Numbered from the stretch's first letter, positions 254 through 59,593 are shown. The stretch is DNA of 64,000 nucleotides from Candidatus Harrisonbacteria bacterium (GCA_016192685.1 JACPTS010000001.1:311647-375646), one strand, 5' to 3'. Made by a program: numbers and translations. Notes: generated from the sequence alone by a model not told the origin.

Positions 254-2380
254 TTATTTTGTCAATTGCTTGATGGAAAGCCCGATTTTTCCGTTTTCCA
301 TTTTAACGATTTTTGCCCGGACAAAATCTCCCAATCTTAAGACATCTTCCACTTTTTTGACGTAACCTTCTTTTAATTCGGAAACGTGAATCATCCCGTC
401 TTTGCCGCCGCCGAATTCCACGATGGCGCCGAATTCCAGAATTTTCACCACGGTCCCCTCCACAATATCGCCGATTTTATATTCTTTGGTAATCGCCATT
501 ACCTCGGCAAGCGCCTTCTGTCCGGTTTCCTGATTAGCGGCAGTAATGAATACCCGGCCGTCGTCTTCTATATCTATAGTAGTGACGCCGGTTTTTTCAA
601 TAATGCCGTTAATTACTTTGCCGCCCGGACCGATTAACCCCCCGATTAATTCCGGATTAATTTGAAGCGAAATAATGCTTGGCGCGAACGGCGAAAGCTG
701 CGGCCGCGGCGCGGATAGAGCTTGATTCATGGTTTTTAAGATTTCCAGCCGGGCTTCTTTTGCCTGCGCTAAAGTTTTTTCCAGCATTTCCGGGGTAATG
801 CCCTGGATTTTGACATCCATCTGGATGGCAGTGACGCCGGAATCCGTGCCGGCGGCTTTAAAATCCATATCGCCATGATGGTCTTCCGGGCCCTGGATAT
901 CAGTCAAAACCTTATAGGACTTATTGGACTTATTAGTTTTATCGGACTGATCAATCATAAGCCCCATCGCAATTCCGGCAGCCGGCTTTCTAATTGGCAC
1001 TCCGGCATCCATCAGTGATAAACTGCCGGCGCAAACCGTGGCCATGGAAGAAGAGCCGTTGGAAGAAAGAATTTCGGAAACCAAACGGATAGTATAAGGA
1101 AATTGTTCCTGTGCTGGAATTAAATTCCGGAGCGCTTTGTGGGCGAGATTGCCGTGGCCGATATCTCTTCGGCCCGGGCCGCGGAATGGGCCGATTTCCC
1201 CGACCGAATACGGCGGGAAATTGTAATGAAGCAAAAATCGGCGCTTGCCGGAAAATTCAACGGTTTCCACCAGTTGCTGGTCTCCCGGAGCGCCGAGAGT
1301 GGTGACCCCCAGAGCTTGGGTATTGCCGCGAATAAATAAAGCCGAGCCGTGGACGCGCGGCAAAAGCGCCACTTCGGAATGAAGCTCCCGAAGCTCGTTT
1401 AATTTCCGGCCGTCCGGCCGTTTTTCTTCCTTAAGAATTTTTTCGTGGACTAAGTCGTTGATTTCTTCTTCAAAAAGATTATTGGCCGCGATTAGCTCCT
1501 TTTCGGAATATTCCTTTTTTTCCAAATGTTCTTTCAGGGAATTTTTTAAGCCGCCCAAATTTTCATACATTTCCTGTTTATTGGGATTATAAACCGCTTT
1601 TTCCAGTTTGTTTTTGAGGAAACTCTTAATTTCTTTTTTTAATTTTTCATCCGGTTCAGCGAGGCCGACTTTTGCTTTCGGCTTGCCGATTTCTTTAATA
1701 ATAGTTTCTTGCCAATGGATAAGTTTTTGAATTTCTTTGTGTCCCTCGGAAAAGGCCCGCACTACTTCTGATTCTTGCGCTTCATTGCCTTCCAGCTCAA
1801 TCATATTTATCCGTTCTTTGGTTCCGGAGAGAAAAGCGTCCATTTCCATTTGGGCATTGGCAGTTTCGCTTAAATTGGGATTAAATTTTACTTCGGAAGC
1901 GCCTTTGGTTTTAAATATTTTTACTCCGGCCACCGGACCGTCCCAGGGAATCGGAGATATGGCAAGCGCCGCGGAAGCGGCCAGCAAGCCGATAAAATCC
2001 GGGTCATTTTCTCCGTCATAAGTTAAGACCGTTACTACCAGCTGGATTTCCCGCCGCATTTTTTGGTCAAAAAGCGGGCGGATGGTCCGGTCAATCAGCC
2101 GTCCGGTAAGAATTGCTTCGTCTGAAGACCGCCCCTCGCGCCGGACAAAGCGGCTGCCAAGAATTTTCCCGGCGGCATAAAATTTTTCTTCGTAATTTAC
2201 CATCAGCGGGAAATAATCTTTATCAATGTCTTTTTTACTCATGACTACCGTTGCCAAAACAGTGGTGTCGCCATAGCGCCCAAGTACCGAAGCATCGGCT
2301 TGATCCGCCAAGCGGGAAACTTCCAGCGTCAGCGGCTTTCCGGCGAAATCCATTTTAAATTGTTTCCGTCCTAAATTCAT
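254..2380 (-). CDS. pnp: polynucleotide phosphorylase (PNPase)
   Basis: 708 aa; two RNase PH-like cores, KH and C-terminal S1 domain (GDIVEGTVVKILEFGAIVEF...); lies downstream of rpsO as in the classical rpsO-pnp locus. Confidence 0.9.
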   Translation of the reverse strand: MNLGRKQFKMDFAGKPLTLEVSRLADQADASVLGRYGDTTVLATVVMSKKDIDKDYFPLMVNYEEKFYAAGKILGSRFVRREGRSSDEAILTGRLIDRTIRPLFDQKMRREIQLVVTVLTYDGENDPDFIGLLAASAALAISPIPWDGPVAGVKIFKTKGASEVKFNPNLSETANAQMEMDAFLSGTKERINMIELEGNEAQESEVVRAFSEGHKEIQKLIHWQETIIKEIGKPKAKVGLAEPDEKLKKEIKSFLKNKLEKAVYNPNKQEMYENLGGLKNSLKEHLEKKEYSEKELIAANNLFEEEINDLVHEKILKEEKRPDGRKLNELRELHSEVALLPRVHGSALFIRGNTQALGVTTLGAPGDQQLVETVEFSGKRRFLLHYNFPPYSVGEIGPFRGPGRRDIGHGNLAHKALRNLIPAQEQFPYTIRLVSEILSSNGSSSMATVCAGSLSLMDAGVPIRKPAAGIAMGLMIDQSDKTNKSNKSYKVLTDIQGPEDHHGDMDFKAAGTDSGVTAIQMDVKIQGITPEMLEKTLAQAKEARLEILKTMNQALSAPRPQLSPFAPSIISLQINPELIGGLIGPGGKVINGIIEKTGVTTIDIEDDGRVFITAANQETGQKALAEVMAITKEYKIGDIVEGTVVKILEFGAIVEFGGGKDGMIHVSELKEGYVKKVEDVLRLGDFVRAKIVKMENGKIGLSIKQLTK

Positions 2381-2383
2381 AGT

Positions 2384-2902
2384 TTATTTTTTAAGCAGCA
2401 TTTTTGGCATTTCACCCAAATCAATAAATTCATCGGCTACCTCTTTTATTTTTCCGGAAGCGCTGCGGCCAAAAGCCGCCACTTCTACCGTCAGCCCTTT
2501 GCCCCATTTTAAATATTCCACCAGCGGGATAAAATCTCCGTCGCCGGTAACTAAAATTACCACGTCTAAAAGTTCGGACATTCGGATGGCGTCTACCGCC
2601 ATGCCCACGTCCCAATCCGCTTTTTTCATTCCGCCGGCGTAAATCTGCAAATCTTTGCTCCGAAGTTCCAAACCAGCCTTCACCAAAGCGTCAAAAAATT
2701 CCGCTTCGCCTTTGGCGGTTTCGCTTTTTACCACGTATGCCATGGCGCTGATAAGTTTTCGCCCGGCCACCAGCTCTTTCATCAATTCTTTATAATTGAC
2801 CCGAGCGTGATATAAGTTTTTAGAAGAGTGGTAGAGATTTTGGATGTCAATAAAAATTCCTACTCTCTGATCTTTTCGCTTCATTTGCTTTATGTAACGC
2901 AA
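2384..2902 (-). CDS. NYN/LabA-like (PIN-like) domain protein, predicted RNase
   Basis: 172 aa; GIFIDIQNLYH...VILVTGDGDF motif typical of NYN/LabA (DUF88); stop lies 3 bp from the pnp start (translational coupling). Confidence 0.65.
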   Translation of the reverse strand: MRYIKQMKRKDQRVGIFIDIQNLYHSSKNLYHARVNYKELMKELVAGRKLISAMAYVVKSETAKGEAEFFDALVKAGLELRSKDLQIYAGGMKKADWDVGMAVDAIRMSELLDVVILVTGDGDFIPLVEYLKWGKGLTVEVAAFGRSASGKIKEVADEFIDLGEMPKMLLKK

Positions 2903-18790: not shown

Positions 18791-18934
18791 AAGCTCTATA
18801 TATCTTCCTACCGGCACCGGAGTCCGCTTGCTCCAGCGGCAAGCGGCTCCTACGCCTCGCTCCGAAATTTTTGCTTCGCGAAAACCAAGCATTTCGGAGC
18901 TCCGTAGTTGCCGTACGAAAGATATATAGAGCTT
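18791..18934 (+). repeat. structured repeat element, copy B
   Basis: perfect 16-bp flanking inverted repeat aagctctatatatctt / aagatatatagagctt; same three core boxes as copy A; nearly identical to copy G. Confidence 0.9.
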
Positions 18935-21467: not shown

Positions 21468-22646
21468 TTGTTTTATAATATAAAAATGGCAAATAATGAT
21501 TTATTAACTCGGGGCGTTATAGAAATAATTGGAAAAGAGCATTTGGAAACCGCGCTTCATAGCGGCAGGAAATTACGGGTGAAATTCGGCATTGATCCGA
21601 CTTCGCCGGATTTGCATTTGGGGCACACGGTGCCGCTTCGGAAACTCCGCCAGTTTCAGGATGCCGGCCATACAGCGGTTTTGATTATCGGCGATTTTAC
21701 CGCTAAAATCGGCGATCCATCCGGCCGCGATAAAACCCGTCCCCAGCTTTCTGATAAAGAAATTAAAACCAACTTTAAAACTTATTTGAATCAAGCGAAG
21801 AAAGTTTTGGATATGAAAAAAACCGAGATTCATTATAATAGCGAATGGTTGAAAAAAGATAAGCTGATTTTAGAGTTGATGTCCCAGATGTCAATGGAGA
21901 GAGTGATGGAGCGGGAGGATTTCCAAAAAAGAATTAAAGCCGGACAAGAAGTAACTATGCTGGAGGCGCTTTACCCGATTTTACAAGGCTATGATTCAGT
22001 GGCAGTTCGCGCTGATGTAGAAATCGGCGGCAATGACCAAAAATTTAATCTTTTAATGGGCCGGCGGCTTCAAAGAAAATACGGCCAGAGCGAGCAGGAC
22101 GTGGTTATGCTTCCGCTTTTGGAAGGCACGGATGGCGTACAAAAAATGAGCAAAAGTTTGGGAAATTACATTGGGCTTGCGGAAAAGCCGGAAATTATGT
22201 TCGGGAAAATTATGTCGGTGCCGGATGAATTGATTTTAAAATACGCGGAACTTTTAACTGATTTGCCATTAGATAAGATATCGGCAAAAGCAAAATCCGA
22301 CCCTCGCGGCGCCAAAATGGACCTGGCCAAAACTTTGACAAAAATGTATCACGGAAAATCTGCCGGCGAAAAAGCGGAAAAAGAATTTGTGCGAATAGTA
22401 TCTAAAAAAGAAACACCAACAGAAGTTAAAAGTTTAAAGTTAAAAGTTATAAAGTTATCTTTGATTGATTTACTCGTTGAAACTAAATTAGCTTCCAGCA
22501 AAAGCGAAGCCAGGCGGCTTATTCAGCAGGGAGGAGTTAAAATCAACGGGGAAAAACAAGTTGACCCGGGCAAAACCGTTGATTTAAAGAAAGAAATTTT
22601 ATTGCAGGTTGGTAAAATGAAATACTTGAAAATTCGCAGAGGATAA
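21468..22646 (+). CDS. tyrS: tyrosine--tRNA ligase
   Basis: HIGH-like motif HLGH, KMSKS motif, C-terminal S4 domain; true start may be the ATG at 21486 (MANNDLL). Confidence 0.85.
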   Translation: MFYNIKMANNDLLTRGVIEIIGKEHLETALHSGRKLRVKFGIDPTSPDLHLGHTVPLRKLRQFQDAGHTAVLIIGDFTAKIGDPSGRDKTRPQLSDKEIKTNFKTYLNQAKKVLDMKKTEIHYNSEWLKKDKLILELMSQMSMERVMEREDFQKRIKAGQEVTMLEALYPILQGYDSVAVRADVEIGGNDQKFNLLMGRRLQRKYGQSEQDVVMLPLLEGTDGVQKMSKSLGNYIGLAEKPEIMFGKIMSVPDELILKYAELLTDLPLDKISAKAKSDPRGAKMDLAKTLTKMYHGKSAGEKAEKEFVRIVSKKETPTEVKSLKLKVIKLSLIDLLVETKLASSKSEARRLIQQGGVKINGEKQVDPGKTVDLKKEILLQVGKMKYLKIRRG

Positions 22647-25965: not shown

Positions 25966-27041
25966 AGAAAAGAGAGTTAAAAGTTAATAGTAAAAGGTTA
26001 AATGTTGGCATCTTGGGTGCCACTGGGATGGTTGGGCAGAGATTTGTGACGCTTTTGGAAAATCATCCGTGGTTTGAGGTGGTGAGTTTAGCGGCTTCGC
26101 CGCAATCGGCCGGGAAAACTTATGAGGAGGCAGTGTCTGGCCGTTGGGTTATGAAAAATTCAGTTCCAGAAAAATTACGCGGTTTAAAAATAAAAGTGGT
26201 TGAAGAAGATTTTGATGAAATTGTAAAAGAGGTGGACTTAGTATTTTCCGCTATTGATGCTGATAAAGAAAAAATCAAAGAAATTGAATTGCGATATGCC
26301 ACGGCTGGCGTGGCAGTAGTTTCCAATAATTCCGCGCATCGCTGGACCCAAGATGTGCCGATGATAATTCCCGAAATAAACGCGCATCATTTATCTTTAA
26401 TTGATATCCAGAAGAAAAATCGGGGTTGGGAAAAGGGGTTGCTCGTAGTGAAGCCAAATTGTTCTTTGCAGTCATATCTTCCAGTAGTATACGCGCTTAA
26501 AAAATTCGGCCCTAAAGAAGTTTTAGTTACGACTTTGCAGGCAATTTCCGGCGCCGGAAAAACTTTTGAATCGTGGCCGGAAATGCTGGATAACTGCATT
26601 CCTTTTATAAAAGGCGAGGAAGAAAAAACTGAAAAAGAACCGACAAAAATCTGGGGCGCGGGCTGTCCGGCTATTTCCGCCACCTGCATCCGTGTTCCAA
26701 TCTCGGATGGCCATATGGCAAGCGTTTCGGTAAAATTTGAAAATAAACCCTCGTTACAACAAATAAGAGATGCGATTGATAGTTTTCCAAATCCTTTGGC
26801 TAGCTTAGACTTACCGTCAGCTCCAAAAAAATTTATCAAATATTTTCTAGAAGATGATCGGCCGCAGACTAAATTAGATCGGGATTATGAAGGCGGCTTG
26901 GGCATTACTTGCGGGAGATTTCGCGAAGATGGAAATAATAGCTGGAAATTTGTTTCTCTTTCCCATAACACAATCCGTGGCGCTGCCGGCGGAGCGATTT
27001 TAATCGCCGAACTTTTGTATAAGAAAGGATATTTAAAATGA
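25962..27041 (+). CDS. asd: aspartate-semialdehyde dehydrogenase
   Basis: 359 aa; VGILGATGMVGQRF Rossmann N-terminus; active-site Cys context; overlaps the thrA stop. Confidence 0.85.
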   Translation: MKKRELKVNSKRLNVGILGATGMVGQRFVTLLENHPWFEVVSLAASPQSAGKTYEEAVSGRWVMKNSVPEKLRGLKIKVVEEDFDEIVKEVDLVFSAIDADKEKIKEIELRYATAGVAVVSNNSAHRWTQDVPMIIPEINAHHLSLIDIQKKNRGWEKGLLVVKPNCSLQSYLPVVYALKKFGPKEVLVTTLQAISGAGKTFESWPEMLDNCIPFIKGEEEKTEKEPTKIWGAGCPAISATCIRVPISDGHMASVSVKFENKPSLQQIRDAIDSFPNPLASLDLPSAPKKFIKYFLEDDRPQTKLDRDYEGGLGITCGRFREDGNNSWKFVSLSHNTIRGAAGGAILIAELLYKKGYLK

Positions 27042-27532: not shown

Positions 27533-28868
27533 CCCTCCTTCGCATAAAGCTACGGAAGGCAAGAAAATCCATTTCGTTGATTTTAGAACGGCACTGCTAC
27601 AAGGATTGGCTTTAGATGGCGGACTTTTTATGCCGGAAAGATTTCCAAAATTGAATAAGAAATTCTTAAAAGATATTTCTAAAAAGGAATTTTGGAAAAT
27701 CGCTCTGGAAATCAGCAAAGGTTTTATTAAAGATATTCCGGAAAGAGAATTAAAGAAGATGCTAAAAGACGCTTTTAATTTTGAAGTGCCGCTGAAAAAA
27801 ATAAACGAAAATTTATATATTTTAGAGCTTTGGCATGGGCCAACTTTGGCTTTCAAGGATTTTGGCGCGCGGTTTATGGCCCGGCTCATGAATTATTACC
27901 TGCGCCGCGAAAAGGAAAAATTAAACATTATTGTCGCTACTTCTGGGGACACCGGGAGTGCGGTGGCGCAAGGATTTTATGGATTATCTAACATAAAAGT
28001 TTTTGTTTTATATCCGAGTAAACGCATAACTGCGCTTCAAGAAAAACAAATGGCAACGCTCGGTAAAAACATTGTGTCATTGGAAGTAAAAGGAAATTTT
28101 GATGATTGCCAAAAACTTGCCAAACAAATATTGGCAGATAAAGATTTAAAAGAAAAAATAAATTTATCTTCAGCCAATTCTATAAATTTTGGAAGATTAC
28201 TTCCGCAATCCTTTTATTATTTTTACGGTTATGCCCAATTACTAAATAAGTTAAAAGTTAAAAGTGAAAAATTAAAAGTTATTTATTGTGTTCCCAGCGG
28301 GAATTTCGGCAATTTAACCGCCGGATTAATGGCGAAACAAATGGGTTTGCCCGTGAAACAATTTATCGCGGCGACGAATGCGAATGATATTGTTCCGCAA
28401 TATCTCAGAACCGGAAAATTTGTTTCACGCGTTTCGTGTAAAACAATTTCTAACGCCATGGATGTCGGCAATCCGAGCAATTTTGCGAGGATGCTGGAAA
28501 TGTTTCACGGCGATGTAAAACAAATGCGCCGCGAAATTATTGGTTTCGGTGTAAGTGACAAACAAACGCGTGAAACAATTAAAAATGTTTATCGTAAAAC
28601 CGGCTATATTTTAGATCCGCATACTGCGGTTGGAATTGCCGCGGCGCGCAAAAGCAATATTTTGCAACCGATTATCGTATTAAGCACCGCGCATCCTGCT
28701 AAATTCAGAGAAGCGGTGGAGCCGGTTATAAGCAAAAAGATTTCCTTGCCGCCGCAGCTCAAAAAAATTATTAATAAAGCCAAAAAGGCGACTTTGGTGG
28801 AAAATAATGTTGAGACGGTTAAGCGGATTATTTTAGAAAAATATGGACATATCAAAAAAACCGCCTGA
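27510..28868 (+). CDS. thrC: threonine synthase
   Basis: 452 aa; PLP-fold; FKDFGARFMA, ATSGDTGSA motifs. Confidence 0.85.
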   Translation: MKFYSTNNPPSHKATEGKKIHFVDFRTALLQGLALDGGLFMPERFPKLNKKFLKDISKKEFWKIALEISKGFIKDIPERELKKMLKDAFNFEVPLKKINENLYILELWHGPTLAFKDFGARFMARLMNYYLRREKEKLNIIVATSGDTGSAVAQGFYGLSNIKVFVLYPSKRITALQEKQMATLGKNIVSLEVKGNFDDCQKLAKQILADKDLKEKINLSSANSINFGRLLPQSFYYFYGYAQLLNKLKVKSEKLKVIYCVPSGNFGNLTAGLMAKQMGLPVKQFIAATNANDIVPQYLRTGKFVSRVSCKTISNAMDVGNPSNFARMLEMFHGDVKQMRREIIGFGVSDKQTRETIKNVYRKTGYILDPHTAVGIAAARKSNILQPIIVLSTAHPAKFREAVEPVISKKISLPPQLKKIINKAKKATLVENNVETVKRIILEKYGHIKKTA

Positions 28869-35460: not shown

Positions 35461-35487
35461 AGAGGCAAATGCCTCTTTTGTTTTTTG
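35461..35487 (+). terminator. intrinsic terminator
   Basis: agaggca-aat-gcctct + tttgttttttgtttttt. Confidence 0.7.
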
Positions 35488-35517
35488 TTTTTTCAAATTA
35501 TATTTAACTTATTGATC

Positions 35518-48600: not shown

Positions 48601-49911
48601 ATGAACTTTTCTCGTTCCCAGCTTGTTATTCTTGGTTCAGTGCTTTTTATTGTTCTTCTTTTGGTTGGCATTTTTACCGGAGTTTTGCCGGGTACCCGCC
48701 AACTCCGGGAAAAACCGCCGGAATTGACTCTGGCTGTCTGGGGAATTGATGAACAAGAATTATTTTTGGAAAATATCAATGCTTACGAAACTCTTCGGCC
48801 GAATGTCCGGGTGGATTACGAAGAATTGGACCCGGCCACTTATGAAGAGAGGATTATTAACGCGCTGGCTGCTGGCGCCGGGCCGGATATTATAATGTTC
48901 CATAATTCCTGGCTGCCGAAACACTATAATAAAATCGTGCCGGTTGGCGACACCCAGCTTAACCTTAAAACCCTGAAAGAAATCTTTCCGGCTGTTGTGG
49001 AACAAGATTTCGCGCCAGACGGGAAAATCCGGGCGCTTCCATTATATATAGATACCCTGGCGTTGTTTTATAATCAGGATACTTTTGATAAAAACGGCAT
49101 TGCTGTTCCGCCAAAAGACTGGCTGGATTTTCAGAATCTTTTGCCGAAATTGCGCGAACGCGACGGTTCCGGCCGAATCACTAAAGCCGGAGCGGCCATC
49201 GGCGGCTCCGAAAAAACCATTGCCAAGTCCGCGGATTTGCTGATGCTTCTGATGCTTCAAGCCGGCGCCAAAATGACCGATGATGGATTTAGCCAAGCTA
49301 CTTTTGCCAGCAATGTCGGCGGCCAACTGCCCGGCATTGACGCTTTAAATTTTTACGCCAAATTCAGCGATCCCCGGGATAATTATTACACCTGGAATGA
49401 TGGCTTGGAATATTCCCTGGACAGTTTTTCGCGCGGCAACGCGACAATGATTTTCCATTACGCGAGAGAACGGAAAAATATTAAAAGTAAAAATCCTTTC
49501 CTCAATTTTAAAACCGCGGAAATGCCTCAGCCGACCGGCGCGGAAAAAGCCGTTAATTACCCGGATTACTGGGGATTGGCGGTTACCAATAACAGCAAAA
49601 ATCCGGACTGGGCCTGGGATTTGATTCTTTATTTGACCGCCAATGATGCCGCCGCGGAAACTTATTTAAAAACTGCTGACCGGCCGCCGGCGCTCCGTTC
49701 TTTAATCCAAAAATACGCTAACCATCCGGAACTCGGCGCTTTTACCAAGCAAGCGCTTTCCGCCCGTTCCTGGCCGCAAATTGATAAAGATGCCATCCGG
49801 CTGATTTTTTCCGATATGATTCAGGCGGTAATCAGCGGCCAGTTGGATTCCCAGGCCGCCGCGGCGCAGGCAGAACGGCAAGTAACCGAATTAATGAAAT
49901 CTCGCCGGTAA
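48601..49911 (+). CDS. ABC-transporter extracellular solute-binding protein (family 1, sugar-type)
   Basis: 436 aa; N-terminal TM anchor; SBP_bac_1-like sequence. Confidence 0.6.
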   Translation: MNFSRSQLVILGSVLFIVLLLVGIFTGVLPGTRQLREKPPELTLAVWGIDEQELFLENINAYETLRPNVRVDYEELDPATYEERIINALAAGAGPDIIMFHNSWLPKHYNKIVPVGDTQLNLKTLKEIFPAVVEQDFAPDGKIRALPLYIDTLALFYNQDTFDKNGIAVPPKDWLDFQNLLPKLRERDGSGRITKAGAAIGGSEKTIAKSADLLMLLMLQAGAKMTDDGFSQATFASNVGGQLPGIDALNFYAKFSDPRDNYYTWNDGLEYSLDSFSRGNATMIFHYARERKNIKSKNPFLNFKTAEMPQPTGAEKAVNYPDYWGLAVTNNSKNPDWAWDLILYLTANDAAAETYLKTADRPPALRSLIQKYANHPELGAFTKQALSARSWPQIDKDAIRLIFSDMIQAVISGQLDSQAAAAQAERQVTELMKSRR

Positions 49912-49925
49912 TTCGCGTTTCTTTC

Positions 49926-50065
49926 GCTTTGCTTATTTGCCTACCGGCACCGGCGTCGTTCCGCTCCTGCGGCGGAACGCGCCTACGCCTCGCTCCGAAA
50001 TTTTCGCTTCGCGAAAGCCAAGCATTTCGGAGCTCCGTAGTTGCCGTACGACAAACAAGCAAAGC
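49926..50065 (+). repeat. structured repeat element, copy G
   Basis: flanks gctttgcttatttg / caaacaagcaaagc; core nearly identical to copy B. Confidence 0.9.
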
Positions 50066-50091
50066 TTAATAATTTCATATATAATTAAATT

Positions 50092-50481
50092 ATGAAAAAA
50101 ATAAAGAAAAAATATTATTTTCTACTTTCTACTTTCTACTTTCTAACTACCCAAATGGCGCTCGCCCAAGGTTTAGTGCCTTGTTCCGGCCTCGATTGCA
50201 CGCTCTGCGATTTTTTGGTTCTCGCAAAAAATTTAATTGATTTAATGCTTAAATGGGGGGTGGCTTTGGCGGCGCTATTTTTTGCCTGGGGCGCTTTTGT
50301 TATAATGACAGCAGGCGGATCAGAGGAAAAAGTAACCGAAGGAAGAAAAATTATGACTACGGTTGCGGTCGGAGTTTTAATCGCTTTTACCGCCTGGCTC
50401 ATTATCGGCACCTTAATGCAAGTTTTAACTAATTCGCCGTCAAAATTACCGTGGAATCAAATTCAATGCACGCTCAAATAA
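50092..50481 (+). CDS. TrbC/VirB2-like pilin paralog 1
   Basis: 129 aa; long signal/leader, two hydrophobic helices separated by the conserved loop TAGGSEEKVTEGRK. Confidence 0.45.
   Translation: MKKIKKKYYFLLSTFYFLTTQMALAQGLVPCSGLDCTLCDFLVLAKNLIDLMLKWGVALAALFFAWGAFVIMTAGGSEEKVTEGRKIMTTVAVGVLIAFTAWLIIGTLMQVLTNSPSKLPWNQIQCTLK
50120..50147 (+). repeat. 7-nt tandem repeat (TTCTACT)x3 + TTCTAAC inside the signal-peptide coding region of pilin paralog 1
   Basis: direct reading; unit length is not a multiple of 3. Confidence 0.8.
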
Positions 50482-50915
50482 AAAAAAATAATTACCAAAT
50501 TATTTTGCTATTATTCTTTTTGGTATTTTTATTATTTTTACCAATTTTTACTAATGCCCAACAAGCTGGTCCTTCGCTAGATGGCAGCGGCGGAACCAGA
50601 ATTGAAGGTCCGGGAGGAACTGCCAAAAGCGGCGGCAGCGGCATTCAGCCGATTCGCCTTCCCAATCCGCTTCAGGCAAATACTTTTCAGGAATTGATTG
50701 GGCGAGTAGTTAATTTCCTTTTGGCAATCGGCGCGCCAATCCTTGTTTTGATGATTATTATCGGCGCCTTTCAGATAATGACCGGTGCCGGCAATCCGGA
50801 AAACATCACCAAGGGAAGGCAAACTATTACTTACGCGATAATCGGCTACGCGCTTTTACTGCTGTCTAAGGGCATTACTCTTATTATTGAGCAATTGCTT
50901 GGTGTGAATAAATAA
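50451..50915 (+). CDS. TrbC/VirB2-like pilin paralog 2 (Gly-rich N-terminal extension)
   Basis: 154 aa; GAFQIMTGAGNPENITKGRQ loop between two hydrophobic helices; true start may be ATG 50466. Confidence 0.45.
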   Translation: MESNSMHAQIKKNNYQIILLLFFLVFLLFLPIFTNAQQAGPSLDGSGGTRIEGPGGTAKSGGSGIQPIRLPNPLQANTFQELIGRVVNFLLAIGAPILVLMIIIGAFQIMTGAGNPENITKGRQTITYAIIGYALLLLSKGITLIIEQLLGVNK

Positions 50916-50984
50916 TTGTGTTATAATATTCAATGAAAGGTCGATTTGTGTTTTATACACGATATAATACGAATCTACGAAATT

Positions 50985-51329
50985 ATGAAAAATTTAACTA
51001 AAAAAATCGCAATTTTAACTTCTATCGCCTTGCCGGTTTTAGTTTTAGCTCAAGGAATTATTCCTTCGCCTAATGTCCCGGTTACCGGCGTTCGCTCTCT
51101 TGATGATTTAAGCAGAATTTTTGTCACTTTAGTAAATTGGGTTACCGGATTATTTTTTGTAACCGCCATTCTTTTCCTTTTCTATGCCGCTTATCTTTAT
51201 CTTGGCGCGGCAGGAGACCCGGAAAAACTTACTCAAGCCAAAAATCAGCTGATTTATTCAGTAATTGCCATCACGGTGGCATTACTTGCGGGTAGCGTAA
51301 GATTCATTGTAGAAAATATTTTAAGATAG
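50985..51329 (+). CDS. TrbC/VirB2-like pilin paralog 3
   Basis: MKNLTKKIAILTSIALPVLVLAQG signal; LGAAGDPEKLTQAKNQ loop; ORF-track start 50946 is probably too early. Confidence 0.45.
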   Translation: MKNLTKKIAILTSIALPVLVLAQGIIPSPNVPVTGVRSLDDLSRIFVTLVNWVTGLFFVTAILFLFYAAYLYLGAAGDPEKLTQAKNQLIYSVIAITVALLAGSVRFIVENILR

Positions 51330-51379
51330 AAAAAACCCGTCAAGTCAGACTTGACGGGTTTTTGATTTTTTAATTTACT

Positions 51380-56351: not shown

Positions 56352-58421
56352 TTAGAATTTTTCTATCATCAACATTTCTTTTTCTTTATTTGGTAAATTT
56401 TGATATATTTCTTCAGTGAGGTGCGGCATGAACGGATGGAGCATTTTTAAAATTTCCAGCAAAGCGGCAGATAAAGTTTCTTTAGTCTCATTGTCTGTCT
56501 GTTTTTTTGCCAGTTCAATGTATTTATCCGCAAATTCGTGCCAAACAAAATCGTAAAGCGTATGCAGCGCTGGCCCGAATTCATAAGCATCAATTTGTTC
56601 CGAAACTGACTTTTTAGTTGTTTTGAGTTTTTCTAAAAATTTTTTATTCTCGGGCATTTTTACATTAATGTTATCCGCCTTCGCCAAGGCTTCGGCGGAT
56701 GGCCCGATTCGCCCTAAGACGAATCGGGCCATATTCCAAACCTTATTCGCGAATTTTTTTCCGGCTATTACGGCATTTTCATCCCAGTGGATATCCTGGC
56801 CGCCCATTGCCTGCCAGATTAATCCGAATCTGGTTGCGTCCGCCCCGTATTTTTCTATAAGAATCATCGGATCAATGCCGGTTCCTAGGGATTTTGACAT
56901 TCTTTTTCCGTCTTTAGTTAAAATCGTTCCGTGAATAATCACATCGGAAAATGGAATTTTTTTTGTAAATTCCAGTCCGGAAAAAACCATTCTTGCTACC
57001 CATAAATTGATAATATCCCGTGCCGTAGAAAGCACTTGGGTAGGATAAAATTTTGCCAAGTCGCCATTCTTCGCTGAAGCTTCGGATGGCCATCCGAGAG
57101 TGGCAAAGGGCCAGAGCGCGGAAGAAAACCAGGTGTCCAAAACATCGGTTTCTCCTTCCAGCGGAATTTTGTGGCCCCACCAGATTTGGCGGGAAACATT
57201 CCAATCGCGGATATTTTCCAGCCAATCAAAATAAATTTTTTCCCAGTTTTTTGGATGAAATTTTACTTTGCCGCCTTTCACCGCTTTGATTGCCGATTTG
57301 GCCAGTTCTTCCATTTTTAAAAACCATTGCAAGCTAGGCAAGGGTTCAATCACGGTTCCGCAGCGGTAACAAACTGCCACGTTGTGGGTATAATTCTCTT
57401 CTTTTTCAATCAAGTTTTGCCTTTTTAGTTCTTCAATAACTTTTTCCCGGCAATCATTGATTTTTAAGCCGGCGCAAAGCTGGCCGGCGGCTTCGGTCAT
57501 TTTGCCAAGCGGCCCGACAACTTTATATATAGGAAGCTTATGCGTTTCTCCGATTCGCGCGTCCAGTAAATCGTGAGCTGGCGTTACTTTTACCGCGCCG
57601 GTTCCGAATTCCATATCAATTTCTTTGTCGGCGATAATCGGAATTTCCCGATTTTGGATTGGCAGTAAAACTTTTTGGCCAACGAGATTTTTATAACGCT
57701 TATCTTTTGGATTCACTGCCACGGCCGCATCGCCGAGCATGGTTTCCGGCCGGGTCGTCGCTACTATAATGTAGTCTTTTGTTTTTTGTTTATCGTCTTT
57801 TGTCAGTGGGTATCGCAGATACCACAATTTACCTCTTCCCTCTTTATATTCCAATTCCAAATCCGACAAACTAGTCTGGCATCTTACGCACCAATTGATT
57901 ACCCGTTCGGCTTTATAAAGCCAGCCTTTTTTGTGGTAATGGAGAAAAGCCTCATTAACCGCTTTTTGATAGTTTTCGTCCATGGTAAAACGGGTGTGGG
58001 ACCAATCCATGGAACAGCCGAGTTTTTTAAACTGGTTTAAAATTATATTTCCGTATTTTTCTTTCCACTCCCAGACTTTTTCCAGAAATTTTTCCCGGCC
58101 TAGGTCGTGGCGATTCAAACCTTGTTTTTTCAATTCTTTTTCCACTACATTCTGGGTGGCAATGCCGGCATGGTCAGTGCCCGGAAGCCAAAGGGTTTTA
58201 TATCCCTCCATTCTTTTTTTGCGGATTAAAATATCCTGAATGGCGGCATTGAGGGCGTGGCCCATATGGAGTGAGCCGGTGACATTCGGCGGCGGAACCA
58301 CTATGGTGTAACTTTTCCCTGTCGGCAGGTTGTCCGGATTAAAATATCCGGACTTTTCCCAAAGCTCGTAAATTTTATCCTCAACTTTTTTCGGGTCGTA
58401 AGCGGAGGGCAGTTCTTTCAT
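56352..58421 (-). CDS. valS: valine--tRNA ligase (short form lacking C-terminal coiled coil)
   Basis: 689 aa; PPPNVTGSLHMGHALN (HIGH), RMSKSLGT (KMSKS). Confidence 0.8.
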   Translation of the reverse strand: MKELPSAYDPKKVEDKIYELWEKSGYFNPDNLPTGKSYTIVVPPPNVTGSLHMGHALNAAIQDILIRKKRMEGYKTLWLPGTDHAGIATQNVVEKELKKQGLNRHDLGREKFLEKVWEWKEKYGNIILNQFKKLGCSMDWSHTRFTMDENYQKAVNEAFLHYHKKGWLYKAERVINWCVRCQTSLSDLELEYKEGRGKLWYLRYPLTKDDKQKTKDYIIVATTRPETMLGDAAVAVNPKDKRYKNLVGQKVLLPIQNREIPIIADKEIDMEFGTGAVKVTPAHDLLDARIGETHKLPIYKVVGPLGKMTEAAGQLCAGLKINDCREKVIEELKRQNLIEKEENYTHNVAVCYRCGTVIEPLPSLQWFLKMEELAKSAIKAVKGGKVKFHPKNWEKIYFDWLENIRDWNVSRQIWWGHKIPLEGETDVLDTWFSSALWPFATLGWPSEASAKNGDLAKFYPTQVLSTARDIINLWVARMVFSGLEFTKKIPFSDVIIHGTILTKDGKRMSKSLGTGIDPMILIEKYGADATRFGLIWQAMGGQDIHWDENAVIAGKKFANKVWNMARFVLGRIGPSAEALAKADNINVKMPENKKFLEKLKTTKKSVSEQIDAYEFGPALHTLYDFVWHEFADKYIELAKKQTDNETKETLSAALLEILKMLHPFMPHLTEEIYQNLPNKEKEMLMIEKF

Positions 58422-58480: not shown

Positions 58481-59593
58481 TTAAATAGTCAGATTTCCTT
58501 GCGCTTCAATTTTAAGGCGTTTTTTGTTTTTTTGGAGAAGATTGATATACGCGGCGGCGGCGATCATGGCGGCATTGTCGGTGTTAAATTCAAAATCCGG
58601 CACAACAAAATTTAGTCGTAAGTCGTTAGTCATTTGTCGTAAGTTGTCGCGAAGCTGTTTGTTTGCCGATACTCCGCCGCAAAGAAGAACTGATTTGGCC
58701 CGGTACTCTTCCGTTGCCCGGATAGCTTTTTTTACTAAAACATCAATAACTGCTTGCTGGAAAGAGGCGGCCACATCAGCTTTTTTTACTTTTGGATTAT
58801 CGCGGAGGTAGTAAAGCACAGAAGTTTTCAATCCGGAAAAACTGAATTCATAGCCGGGTTTATTTAGCATCGGCCGGGGAAATTTTATTGCTTTAGGATC
58901 TCCCCTGGCAGCTAATTTTTGTATTTCCGGGCCGCCGGGATATGGCAAATTCAGCATTCTTGCCACTTTATCAAATGCCTCGCCGGCGGCGTCATCCAAT
59001 GTTTCGCCGAGTTTAGTCCATTTATTGATGGCAGTCATATGGAGTAAAATTGTATGCCCGCCGCTTACGATTAAAGCGATAGCGGGAAATTTGATTTTTG
59101 GAATTATGAATTTGGAATCAGGAATTATGGAATTTTTTTCTTTTCCCCTAATACCTAATACCTTATTCCTTATTCCTTCTATTCGAACTGGAAGCCAGTT
59201 CGAATAGAGGTGTCCCTTCATATGATTTACGCCGATTAGCGGCTTTTTTAATTTCTTTGCCAGTTCTTCGGCAAAATTGATTCCAGTCCAAAGCGCCGGC
59301 TCTAATCCGGGGCCAACGGTCACAGCAAGGTAGTCAATTGTTGTCTTTTGTTGTTTGTTGTTTGTTGTCTTAAGAATTTGCCGTAAAACTATAGGCAAAT
59401 TCTTAAGGTGTTCCCGTTTAGCTAAATTGGGGACTACGCCGCCAAATGGACGGTGAATCGGAATTTGGGAAGAAACGATATTTTTTAAAATTTTAAATCG
59501 CGGCGATTTCAGCGTGCCGTTGGCTTTTAATAAAGCCATAGAAGTTTCATCACAGCTGGTTTCGATGGATAAAAGGGTCTTTGCCTTAGACAT
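58481..59593 (-). CDS. tsaD: tRNA N6-adenosine threonylcarbamoyltransferase
   Basis: 370 aa; SIETSCDETS N-terminus, Kae1/TsaD fold; contains an in-frame repetitive insertion (59090-59215). Confidence 0.8.
   Translation of the reverse strand: MSKAKTLLSIETSCDETSMALLKANGTLKSPRFKILKNIVSSQIPIHRPFGGVVPNLAKREHLKNLPIVLRQILKTTNNKQQKTTIDYLAVTVGPGLEPALWTGINFAEELAKKLKKPLIGVNHMKGHLYSNWLPVRIEGIRNKVLGIRGKEKNSIIPDSKFIIPKIKFPAIALIVSGGHTILLHMTAINKWTKLGETLDDAAGEAFDKVARMLNLPYPGGPEIQKLAARGDPKAIKFPRPMLNKPGYEFSFSGLKTSVLYYLRDNPKVKKADVAASFQQAVIDVLVKKAIRATEEYRAKSVLLCGGVSANKQLRDNLRQMTNDLRLNFVVPDFEFNTDNAAMIAAAAYINLLQKNKKRLKIEAQGNLTI

Follow-up and report, generated by a model that had tools for sequence, protein, structure and literature searches.

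The closest mechanistic precedent for the locus described here is neuO of Escherichia coli K1, the O-acetyltransferase gene of phage CUS-3, the 5′ coding region of which carries a heptanucleotide repeat, AAGACTC, that varies by slipped-strand mispairing. The number of repeats in neuO ranges from 3 to 53, the gene is OFF in 65.6% of 64 genomes, and variants with one unit more or one unit less occur within single cultures. In Haemophilus influenzae, 7-bp repeats in the promoters of hmw1A and hmw2A, present in 13 to 38 copies, modulate transcription, and a survey of simple sequence repeats (SSRs) in Haemophilus adopted an explicitly permissive threshold of at least three heptamers. Seven-nucleotide units are favored among the long-unit SSRs of prokaryotes, a preference that is attributed to polymerase slippage (Mrazek et al., 2007, as cited in PMC4679880). 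In Beggiatoaceae and Cyanobacteria, one heptamer, TAACTGA, is reused throughout the genome, mostly in intergenic regions and often just 5′ of start codons, where it is translatable in one orientation, as LSVISYQ (PMC4679880).

This report focuses on a heptanucleotide array in the signal peptide of a pilin-like gene of Candidatus Harrisonbacteria, and on the 64,000-nucleotide stretch of DNA that contains it, hereafter the window. The bacterium belongs to the Candidate Phyla Radiation (CPR), or Patescibacteria, which are ultrasmall, mostly uncultured episymbionts whose surface appendages are thought to mediate contact with their hosts; to our knowledge, next to nothing is known about surface variation in this radiation. 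Like neuO, the locus has a 7-nt unit in the first codons of a gene whose full-length product is made only in frame. On the other hand, the pilin arrays have only 3 to 4.7 units, neither an OFF allele nor within-species variation in length was seen among them, and they encode the core of a signal peptide, whereas the neuO repeat encodes an N-terminal extension. The likeness to the Haemophilus loci lies in the association of non-triplet SSRs with genes for surface structures, both upstream of and within paralogous genes, the difference being that the organism is here an uncultured groundwater bacterium of the CPR. The peptide LSVISYQ of the TAACTGA repeats is comparable to LLVISYLLL in two related pilin loci (L020 and L021); however, the pilin units differ by locus and lineage, and the focal arrays lie inside coding sequence.

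The array belongs to the first of three tandem pilin-like genes that follow a solute-binding-protein (SBP) gene (Table 1), and this synteny is kept in all related loci. The sequence-only reading had called the gene pilin-like and had likened its repeat to the switches of surface structures; that it encodes a surface or pilin-type protein holds. Paralog 1 passes the cut-off of the PF18895 family, as do paralogs 2 and 3, and its protein is identical to HYY86_01885, predicted from a metagenome-assembled genome of Candidatus Harrisonbacteria at NCBI. Paralog 2 has an additional sub-threshold match to TrbC. By inspection, an AxA-QG site and two hydrophobic blocks are conserved across 24 aligned paralog-1 orthologues, in agreement with the layout of PF18895, a cleavable signal peptide followed by two hydrophobic helices, as judged by eye on the alignment; paralog 1 would be cleaved at this conserved AxA-QG motif. 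Four cysteines are invariant in the same alignment. The TrbC/VirB2-type pilins of type IV secretion systems (T4SSs; PF18895/PF04956) have a similar layout, a signal peptide and then two hydrophobic helices, whereas the partner of the cluster in the window is the SBP gene. Its neighbors between 44.9 and 59.6 kb include gyrA, the SBP gene, valS, tsaD and genes for SPFH, glutamine-synthetase-like, patatin-like and Hsp20 proteins. Since no gene for T4SS machinery (VirB4, VirB6 and similar) was found among the neighboring ORFs read in this interval, a conjugative-type role for paralog 1 is unproven. The TATAAT box ahead of pilin 1 is conserved in L006, L007, L029 and L045, and L017 and L061 have a similar box 8 nt 5′ of the ATG, a position that suggests a leaderless or very short-leader mRNA. 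A consensus promoter scan 5′ of paralog 1 called no promoter, the TATAAT box included, and the box is therefore given as a reading of the sequence only.

Table 1. Positions of the pilin-like gene cluster and of heptanucleotide arrays in the window and in related loci (L numbers).
Sequence	Feature	Position	Strand	Details
Window	Solute-binding-protein gene (SBP_bac_1)	48601-49911	+	Directly 5′ of the pilin cluster
Window	GC-rich structured repeat element	49925-50064	+	Separates the SBP gene from the pilin promoter; context, outside the putative switch
Window	TATAAT box	50080-50085	+	6 nt 5′ of the ATG; read from sequence
Window	Pilin-like paralog 1	50092-50481	+	129 aa; PF18895 (T4SS_pilin), 33.1 bits, cut-off 26.6
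Window	Putative signal peptide MKKIKKKYYFLLSTFYFLTTQMALA, then QG	50092-50169	+	A-x-A/Q-G site aligns with orthologues
Window	A7 tract	50094-50100	+	Lys codons of the n-region
Window	A6 tract	50105-50110	+	Lys codons of the n-region
Window	Perfect heptanucleotide array	50119-50145	+	27 nt; TTTCTAC x3 plus TTTCTA; codons 10-18
Window	In-frame ATG (Met22)	50155-50157	+	10 nt 3′ of the array
Window	Pilin-like paralog 2	50466-50915	+	PF18895, 48.1 bits, cut-off 26.6
Window	Pilin-like paralog 3	50982-51329	+	PF18895, 45.8 bits, cut-off 26.6
Window	Bidirectional terminator-like hairpin	51331-51363	.	Closes the pilin cluster
Window	tsaD	58481-59593	-	Heptad arrays at 59097-59178 and 59347-59368
Window	Period-7 repeats	22423-22457, 25975-26006, 28248-28281, 35476-35493, 57777-57803, 59097-59178, 59347-59368
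L012	Paralog-1 signal-peptide array			CTATATT x4.3, 30 nt perfect
L017	Paralog-1 signal-peptide array			CCTTATT x4.4, 31 nt perfect
L009/L010	Paralog-1 signal-peptide array			TTTACTA, 20 nt
L021	Paralog-1 signal-peptide array			GTTATTA x3
L030-32	Paralog-1 signal-peptide array			GGCTATT, 19 nt
L007	Paralog-1 signal-peptide array			TTATTAG, 17 nt
L003, L005, L006, L008, L013, L019/20, L045, L046	Paralog-1 signal-peptide array			Degenerate heptads
L007	Array at paralog-2 N-terminus	1891-1917		GTATCAG x3.9, 27 nt perfect, codons 3-11
L005	Array at paralog-2 N-terminus	2455-2472		AACTTAC
L052	Array at paralog-2 N-terminus	~1915-1935		AATTACC x2.3
L011	Array upstream of start codon			ACTAGCC
L018	Array upstream of start codon			GTAATTG
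L022	Allele without signal peptide	~1485-1803
L024	Allele without signal peptide	553-864
L027	Allele without signal peptide	3-314
L060	Allele without signal peptide	1411-1761

The space between the SBP gene and the pilin promoter is occupied by a GC-rich element of ~140 nt, of which the window has a second copy (18792-18931) and which is also found in L029 (804-943) and L045 (1-125). It has a highly conserved core (CCTACGCCTCGCTCCGAAATTTTCGCTTCGCGAAA...GTAGTTGCCGTACGA) with a variable inner hairpin and a variable outer stem, RNAalifold gives it 54 pairs, 15 of them with compensatory changes, and it has no match in Rfam. Both window copies lie within terminator-like inverted flanks, just 3′ of the SBP gene and of an H+-pyrophosphatase gene, respectively, and between species the element is far better conserved than the adjoining pilin genes. 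Possible identities are a structured RNA of no known class and a hairpin-targeting miniature inverted-repeat transposable element (MITE).

The array itself is the longest perfect non-triplet microsatellite of the window, scored by Tandem Repeats Finder as 3.9 copies with 100% matches and encoding F-L-L-S-T-F-Y-F-L. It is the repeat that the sequence-only reading had described as TTCTACT x3.9 at 50120-50147, with three perfect units and an imperfect fourth, in a register shifted by one base; the placement of that repeat in codons 10 to 18 of the signal peptide is confirmed, and the A7 and A6 tracts reported for the first codons are present where Table 1 places them. A7 also follows the ATG in several orthologues (e.g., L007, L009, and L030). 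Under a third-order Markov model, 64 kb should contain ~0.2 runs of period 7 in which 10 or more bases match, and a chance origin of the 27-nt run is ruled out. When the gene was rebuilt in silico, arrays of 0, 3 or 6 full units gave intact ORFs of 122, 129 and 136 aa, whereas 1, 2, 4, 5 or 7 full units led to a stop after 44, 15, 51, 22 and 58 codons, respectively. The point that a unit that is not a multiple of three shifts the frame with each one-unit change thus holds, the gene being ON at 0, 3 and 6 units only, and the gain or loss of one unit from the present array cuts the protein off after 15 to 51 codons. After such a frameshift, Met22 could serve as a restart codon for a product without a signal peptide.

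Within the window, no other TTTCTAC array was found, and GTAGAAA, the complementary partner with which the array could pair across the start codon, is absent from 49700-50700. Rfam gave no match at or upstream of the array at E ≤ 1, and the known RNA families of the window are tRNAs only. Programmed ribosomal frameshifting was rejected: TTTCTAC is not a slippery heptamer of the X-XXY-YYZ type, and it is the in-frame product that is conserved. Selection on the peptide was dropped as the source of the periodicity because the DNA repeats are perfect across synonymous positions and because lineages differ in their unit.

Approximately 60 related loci were collected from metagenomes, GTDB genomes and look-ups of exact proteins, the GTDB representative genomes contributing three distant loci only; the N-terminus of one related protein (P0007) is near-identical to that of the window. 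Heptanucleotide arrays are found in the signal-peptide DNA of paralog-1 orthologues in most lineages, with a unit that varies between them (Table 1). Among 22 distinct orthologue signal-peptide DNAs, autocorrelation is highest at lag 7 in 14; averaged over all 22, the match reaches 0.416 at this lag and 0.392 at lag 14, whereas other lags give 0.24 to 0.36. No lag-7 peak was found in the signal peptides of paralogs 2 and 3 or in the N-termini of 44 other ORFs of the window. Lag-7 identity is 0.78 within arrays; comparisons between lineages give 0.60, although they were granted the most favorable of 13 offsets. Units are homogenized within a lineage and different between lineages. A unit of the TTATTAG type yields TAG in one frame, and in both L007 and L021 the third unit is mutated exactly there; because this stop-making unit is the mutated one, the periodicity must arise at the DNA level and be filtered by selection for an open frame.

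In 113 kb of related DNA, 7 is the commonest perfect tandem period, with 15 runs; periods 6 and 9 account for 6 and 8 runs, respectively. All but one of these 15 runs lie at the 5′ ends of pilin genes, namely in the signal peptide of paralog 1, at the N-terminus of paralog 2 or in the promoter region upstream. Outside the 15 perfect runs, L017, L046 and L061 have imperfect upstream arrays of the GGAATTA type. In the window, the N-terminus of paralog 2 has a mere heptad remnant (AATTACCAAATTAT), and the period-7 signal is absent from the signal peptides of paralog 3.

Comparison of related arrays gives a view of their turnover. Candidatus Wolfebacteria L059, whose protein has 43% amino acid identity to that of the window, carries the same TTTCTAC unit in a 33-nt perfect run of 4.7 units, which is in frame, exceeds the array of the window by one unit and is preceded by degenerate units. 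The perfect identity of these two arrays at synonymous positions, despite the evolutionary distance between them, requires continuing homogenization. At much closer range, the ~96% identical strains L017 and L061 show 18 differences over 492 sites beyond the array, whereas inside it three C/T changes are spaced by exactly 7 and 7 nt, so that one strain has TTATTCC x4 and the other TTATTCT x3 plus TTATTCC in an array of the same length. The rough probability of three such changes by independent point mutation is ~1e-3 or less, and duplication plus loss of units, or conversion, explains them directly. Given the lineage-specific units at one site, the extra copy in L059 and the parallel changes between L017 and L061, the comparison indicates that the pilin arrays turn over by slippage or conversion. 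Concerted turnover of units would have passed either through out-of-frame intermediates or through length-neutral conversion, and either fits. Four contigs have an end that falls on or inside a pilin-cluster array (the start of L015, the ends of L051 and L005, and the contig of P0076); these ends may reflect branching of the assembly graph caused by heterogeneity in repeat number, on an anecdotal n of 4.

No out-of-frame allele was found in the ~27 independent lineages examined, in all of which the gene is in frame, the only altered alleles among them being deletions of the signal peptide (the L022 group and L060). Were 30% of alleles OFF, such an all-ON outcome would have a probability of 7e-5, and at 10% OFF one of 0.06. 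Arrays of the pilin loci are short and range narrowly from 3 to 4.7 perfect units, the latter being the maximum, and the 3.9 units of the window compare with the permissive threshold of 3 heptamers and with 13 to 53 in proven heptanucleotide loci. No difference in copy number was found among contigs of the same species, in consensus assemblies that would hide minority alleles. These comparisons comprised the window and Logan contig L001, five assemblies of the L007 species, which are invariant, a perfect 27-nt array included, seven loci of the P0013 species, L009/L010 and L030-32. The comparison of strains thus cuts both ways for the phase-variation switch proposed in the sequence-only reading: the constant copy number within species counts against it, while the turnover of units between L017 and L061 and the additional unit of L059 count for it.

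Three apparent exceptions were examined and set aside. The apparent break in paralog 2 of L047 (~1990-2220) relative to L048, at first a candidate OFF allele, is a scaffolding artifact with a run of N and a duplicated 36-nt flank. The 145-aa and 141-aa versions of paralog 2 in the P0013 species have identical DNA and differ only in the start chosen by the gene caller, and the shorter cluster members P0068, P0072 and P0076 reflect truncation at contig ends or rearrangement instead of array frameshifts.

Heptad periodicity is not confined to pilin genes. In the window, six perfect runs of period 7 have 10 or more matched bases, where ~0.2 are expected, and each other period has zero to two; four of the six lie in housekeeping genes, one in thrC and three in tsaD, and perfect or imperfect period-7 arrays are found inside tyrS, asd, thrC, valS and tsaD. 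Switching in tsaD, thrC and tyrS is implausible. In tsaD, the arrays fall where a comparison with Thermotoga TsaD (PDB 6n9a) reveals lineage-specific insertions that keep the frame, of ~30 aa at residues 134-164 and of ~4 aa in the region of residues 70-81. The smaller insertion goes with a TTTGTTG array at roughly residues 76-83, and the larger one is a GGAATTA-type array followed by CCTAATA/CCTTATT arrays, which together form an approximate inverted repeat of heptads. The unit AAGTTAA occurs in three different genes, all within 6 kb. A 19-nt stretch of the tsaD insert, GGAATTATGAATTTGGAAT (59100-59118), is matched exactly in the promoter-region array of the pilin locus of another organism (L017, 709-727), and arrays resembling the latter are also found in L046 and L061; the 19-nt match suggests a dispersed or mobile heptad-repeat sequence.

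The best-supported explanation, to which we give about as much belief as doubt, is that the array is a microsatellite with active slippage which, besides serving as the hydrophobic core of the signal peptide, acts as a low-rate frameshift switch, mostly ON. T-rich units such as TTTCTAC specify hydrophobic or small residues in every frame (F-L, L-S or T-F-Y), so that an array of ~4 to 5 units can act as the h-region. Replication slippage would add or remove 7-nt units, each single-unit change shifting the frame, and the resulting frameshift would silence paralog 1 or, at best, permit a restart at Met22 without a signal peptide, until a second slip regained the frame; the locus would then be a reversible frameshift switch. 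Because the array is short, the rate of switching is most likely low, and populations would be kept predominantly ON. Turnover would, under this explanation, proceed by single-unit slips with out-of-frame intermediates, and the OFF state might have a biological use. The locus works like a contingency locus in principle and is a plausible low-rate switch: it has an uninterrupted non-triplet repeat, the 27-nt run, inside an ORF, and in the in silico series its frame changes between ON and OFF with one unit. It is not filed as a proven contingency locus: while these two defining features are clear, tract length and repeat-number polymorphism point both ways, and coexisting ON and OFF alleles were not found in nature, the ~27 lineages being all in frame. 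Of the earlier proposal of a phase-variation switch the frame mechanics stand, and the label of a classic contingency locus is not supported, in view of the uniformly open frames, the constant repeat number among same-species contigs, the short arrays and the presence of heptads in essential genes as well.

The main alternative, although one that we find somewhat doubtful, is that a genome-wide bias of polymerase slippage toward heptamers leaves arrays behind as tolerated by-products, with frameshifts, simply deleterious, being purged and no switch involved; arrays would survive in the h-region since nearly any T-rich sequence that encodes hydrophobic residues works there. The excess of period-7 runs in the window speaks for it, with its share in housekeeping genes, the imperfect arrays in tyrS and asd and the coincidence of the tsaD arrays with lineage-specific insertions, as do the in-frame state of every pilin allele, the invariance of same-species contigs, the shortness of the arrays and the report that heptanucleotides are the commonest class of SSRs with units of 5 to 11 nt across prokaryotes (PMC4679880). 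However, a by-product leaves unexplained why 14 of 15 runs in the related loci lie at the 5′ ends or promoters of pilin genes and none in the signal peptide of paralog 3, and why, instead of decaying, perfect arrays keep being rebuilt from new units in many lineages; moreover, neutral slippage in coding DNA should favor periods of 3, 6 and 9, not 7.

Another source of variation is visible in the 5′ segment of the gene as a whole. L045 and L046, from one aquifer, have mature-domain DNA that is ~97% identical and unrelated DNA in the signal peptide and upstream of it, with a sharp breakpoint at the signal-peptidase site, and L003 and L013 repeat this pattern, breakpoint included, with mature DNA that is ~90% identical; these pairs indicate that the segment with the promoter and signal peptide has been exchanged as a module between near-identical genes. 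The module can also be lost. A single protein cluster, formed at 90%, contains both the L017-type allele of 133 aa, complete with promoter and signal peptide, and an allele without either: L022, L024 and L027 (P0071) lack ~135 nt that comprise the promoter and the whole signal peptide, their ATG overlaps the stop codon of the SBP gene (ATGA), and their mature region is near-identical to that of L017 and L061. The P0071 form without a signal peptide is present on at least 12 contigs, more than the full form, and L060 has a vestigial N-terminus of nine residues ahead of the conserved mature start. These exchanges and losses, together with the observation that the type of signal peptide does not track mature-domain similarity among orthologues, speak for a reading in which recombination between relatives that occur together swaps or deletes a promoter and signal-peptide cassette, the arrays being a marker or a hot spot and the variation arising from differences in export or expression between cassettes, not from frameshifts. 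As the main explanation it is improbable, since exchange of cassettes makes no perfect tandem arrays and leaves the parallel substitutions between L017 and L061 unexplained; it is, however, compatible with slippage and not exclusive of it. Finally, the periodicity might itself be selected at the level of RNA or protein, as a 5′ element, unstructured or bound by protein, in a leaderless mRNA or as a special export signal. The location of the arrays, within about -45 to +70 relative to the start codon, the conserved TATAAT 6 nt before the ATG and the mention of heptamer-repeat binding by CspB, of the cold-shock type (PMC4679880), would agree with this. We nevertheless consider it highly improbable, given that no motif is common to the units across lineages, that the array has neither an inverted-repeat partner nearby (49700-50700) nor a match in Rfam, and that alleles without a signal peptide persist.

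The low-rate frameshift switch could also be part of something larger. In an extended version, which we regard as rather unlikely, the arrays would form a clade-wide, selectively maintained heptanucleotide "contingency" system of episymbiotic CPR bacteria, from Harrisonbacteria to Wolfebacteria, in which arrays in promoters, in the paralog-1 signal peptide and at the paralog-2 N-terminus, together with exchange and deletion of cassettes, would stochastically vary which T4SS-pilin-like surface proteins are made and exported. No description of SSR-type phase variation in the CPR was found in the literature searched, and the novel aspects of the locus are a frameshift-prone SSR in 5′ coding sequence in a new phylum and its unusual position, in the core of a signal peptide. 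If the clade-wide system is real, it would be the first SSR-based phase variation described in the CPR. If the arrays switch, they would offer a simple marker of surface variation in natural CPR populations that can be counted in reads, as well as an unusual case in which a frameshift-prone repeat is the hydrophobic core of a signal peptide. Even without adaptive switching, the arrays show that 7-nt repeats can make up, and keep remaking, the DNA of a signal peptide, and such remade signal peptides and exchanged modules bear on gene calling and on the evolution of small secreted proteins in metagenomes.
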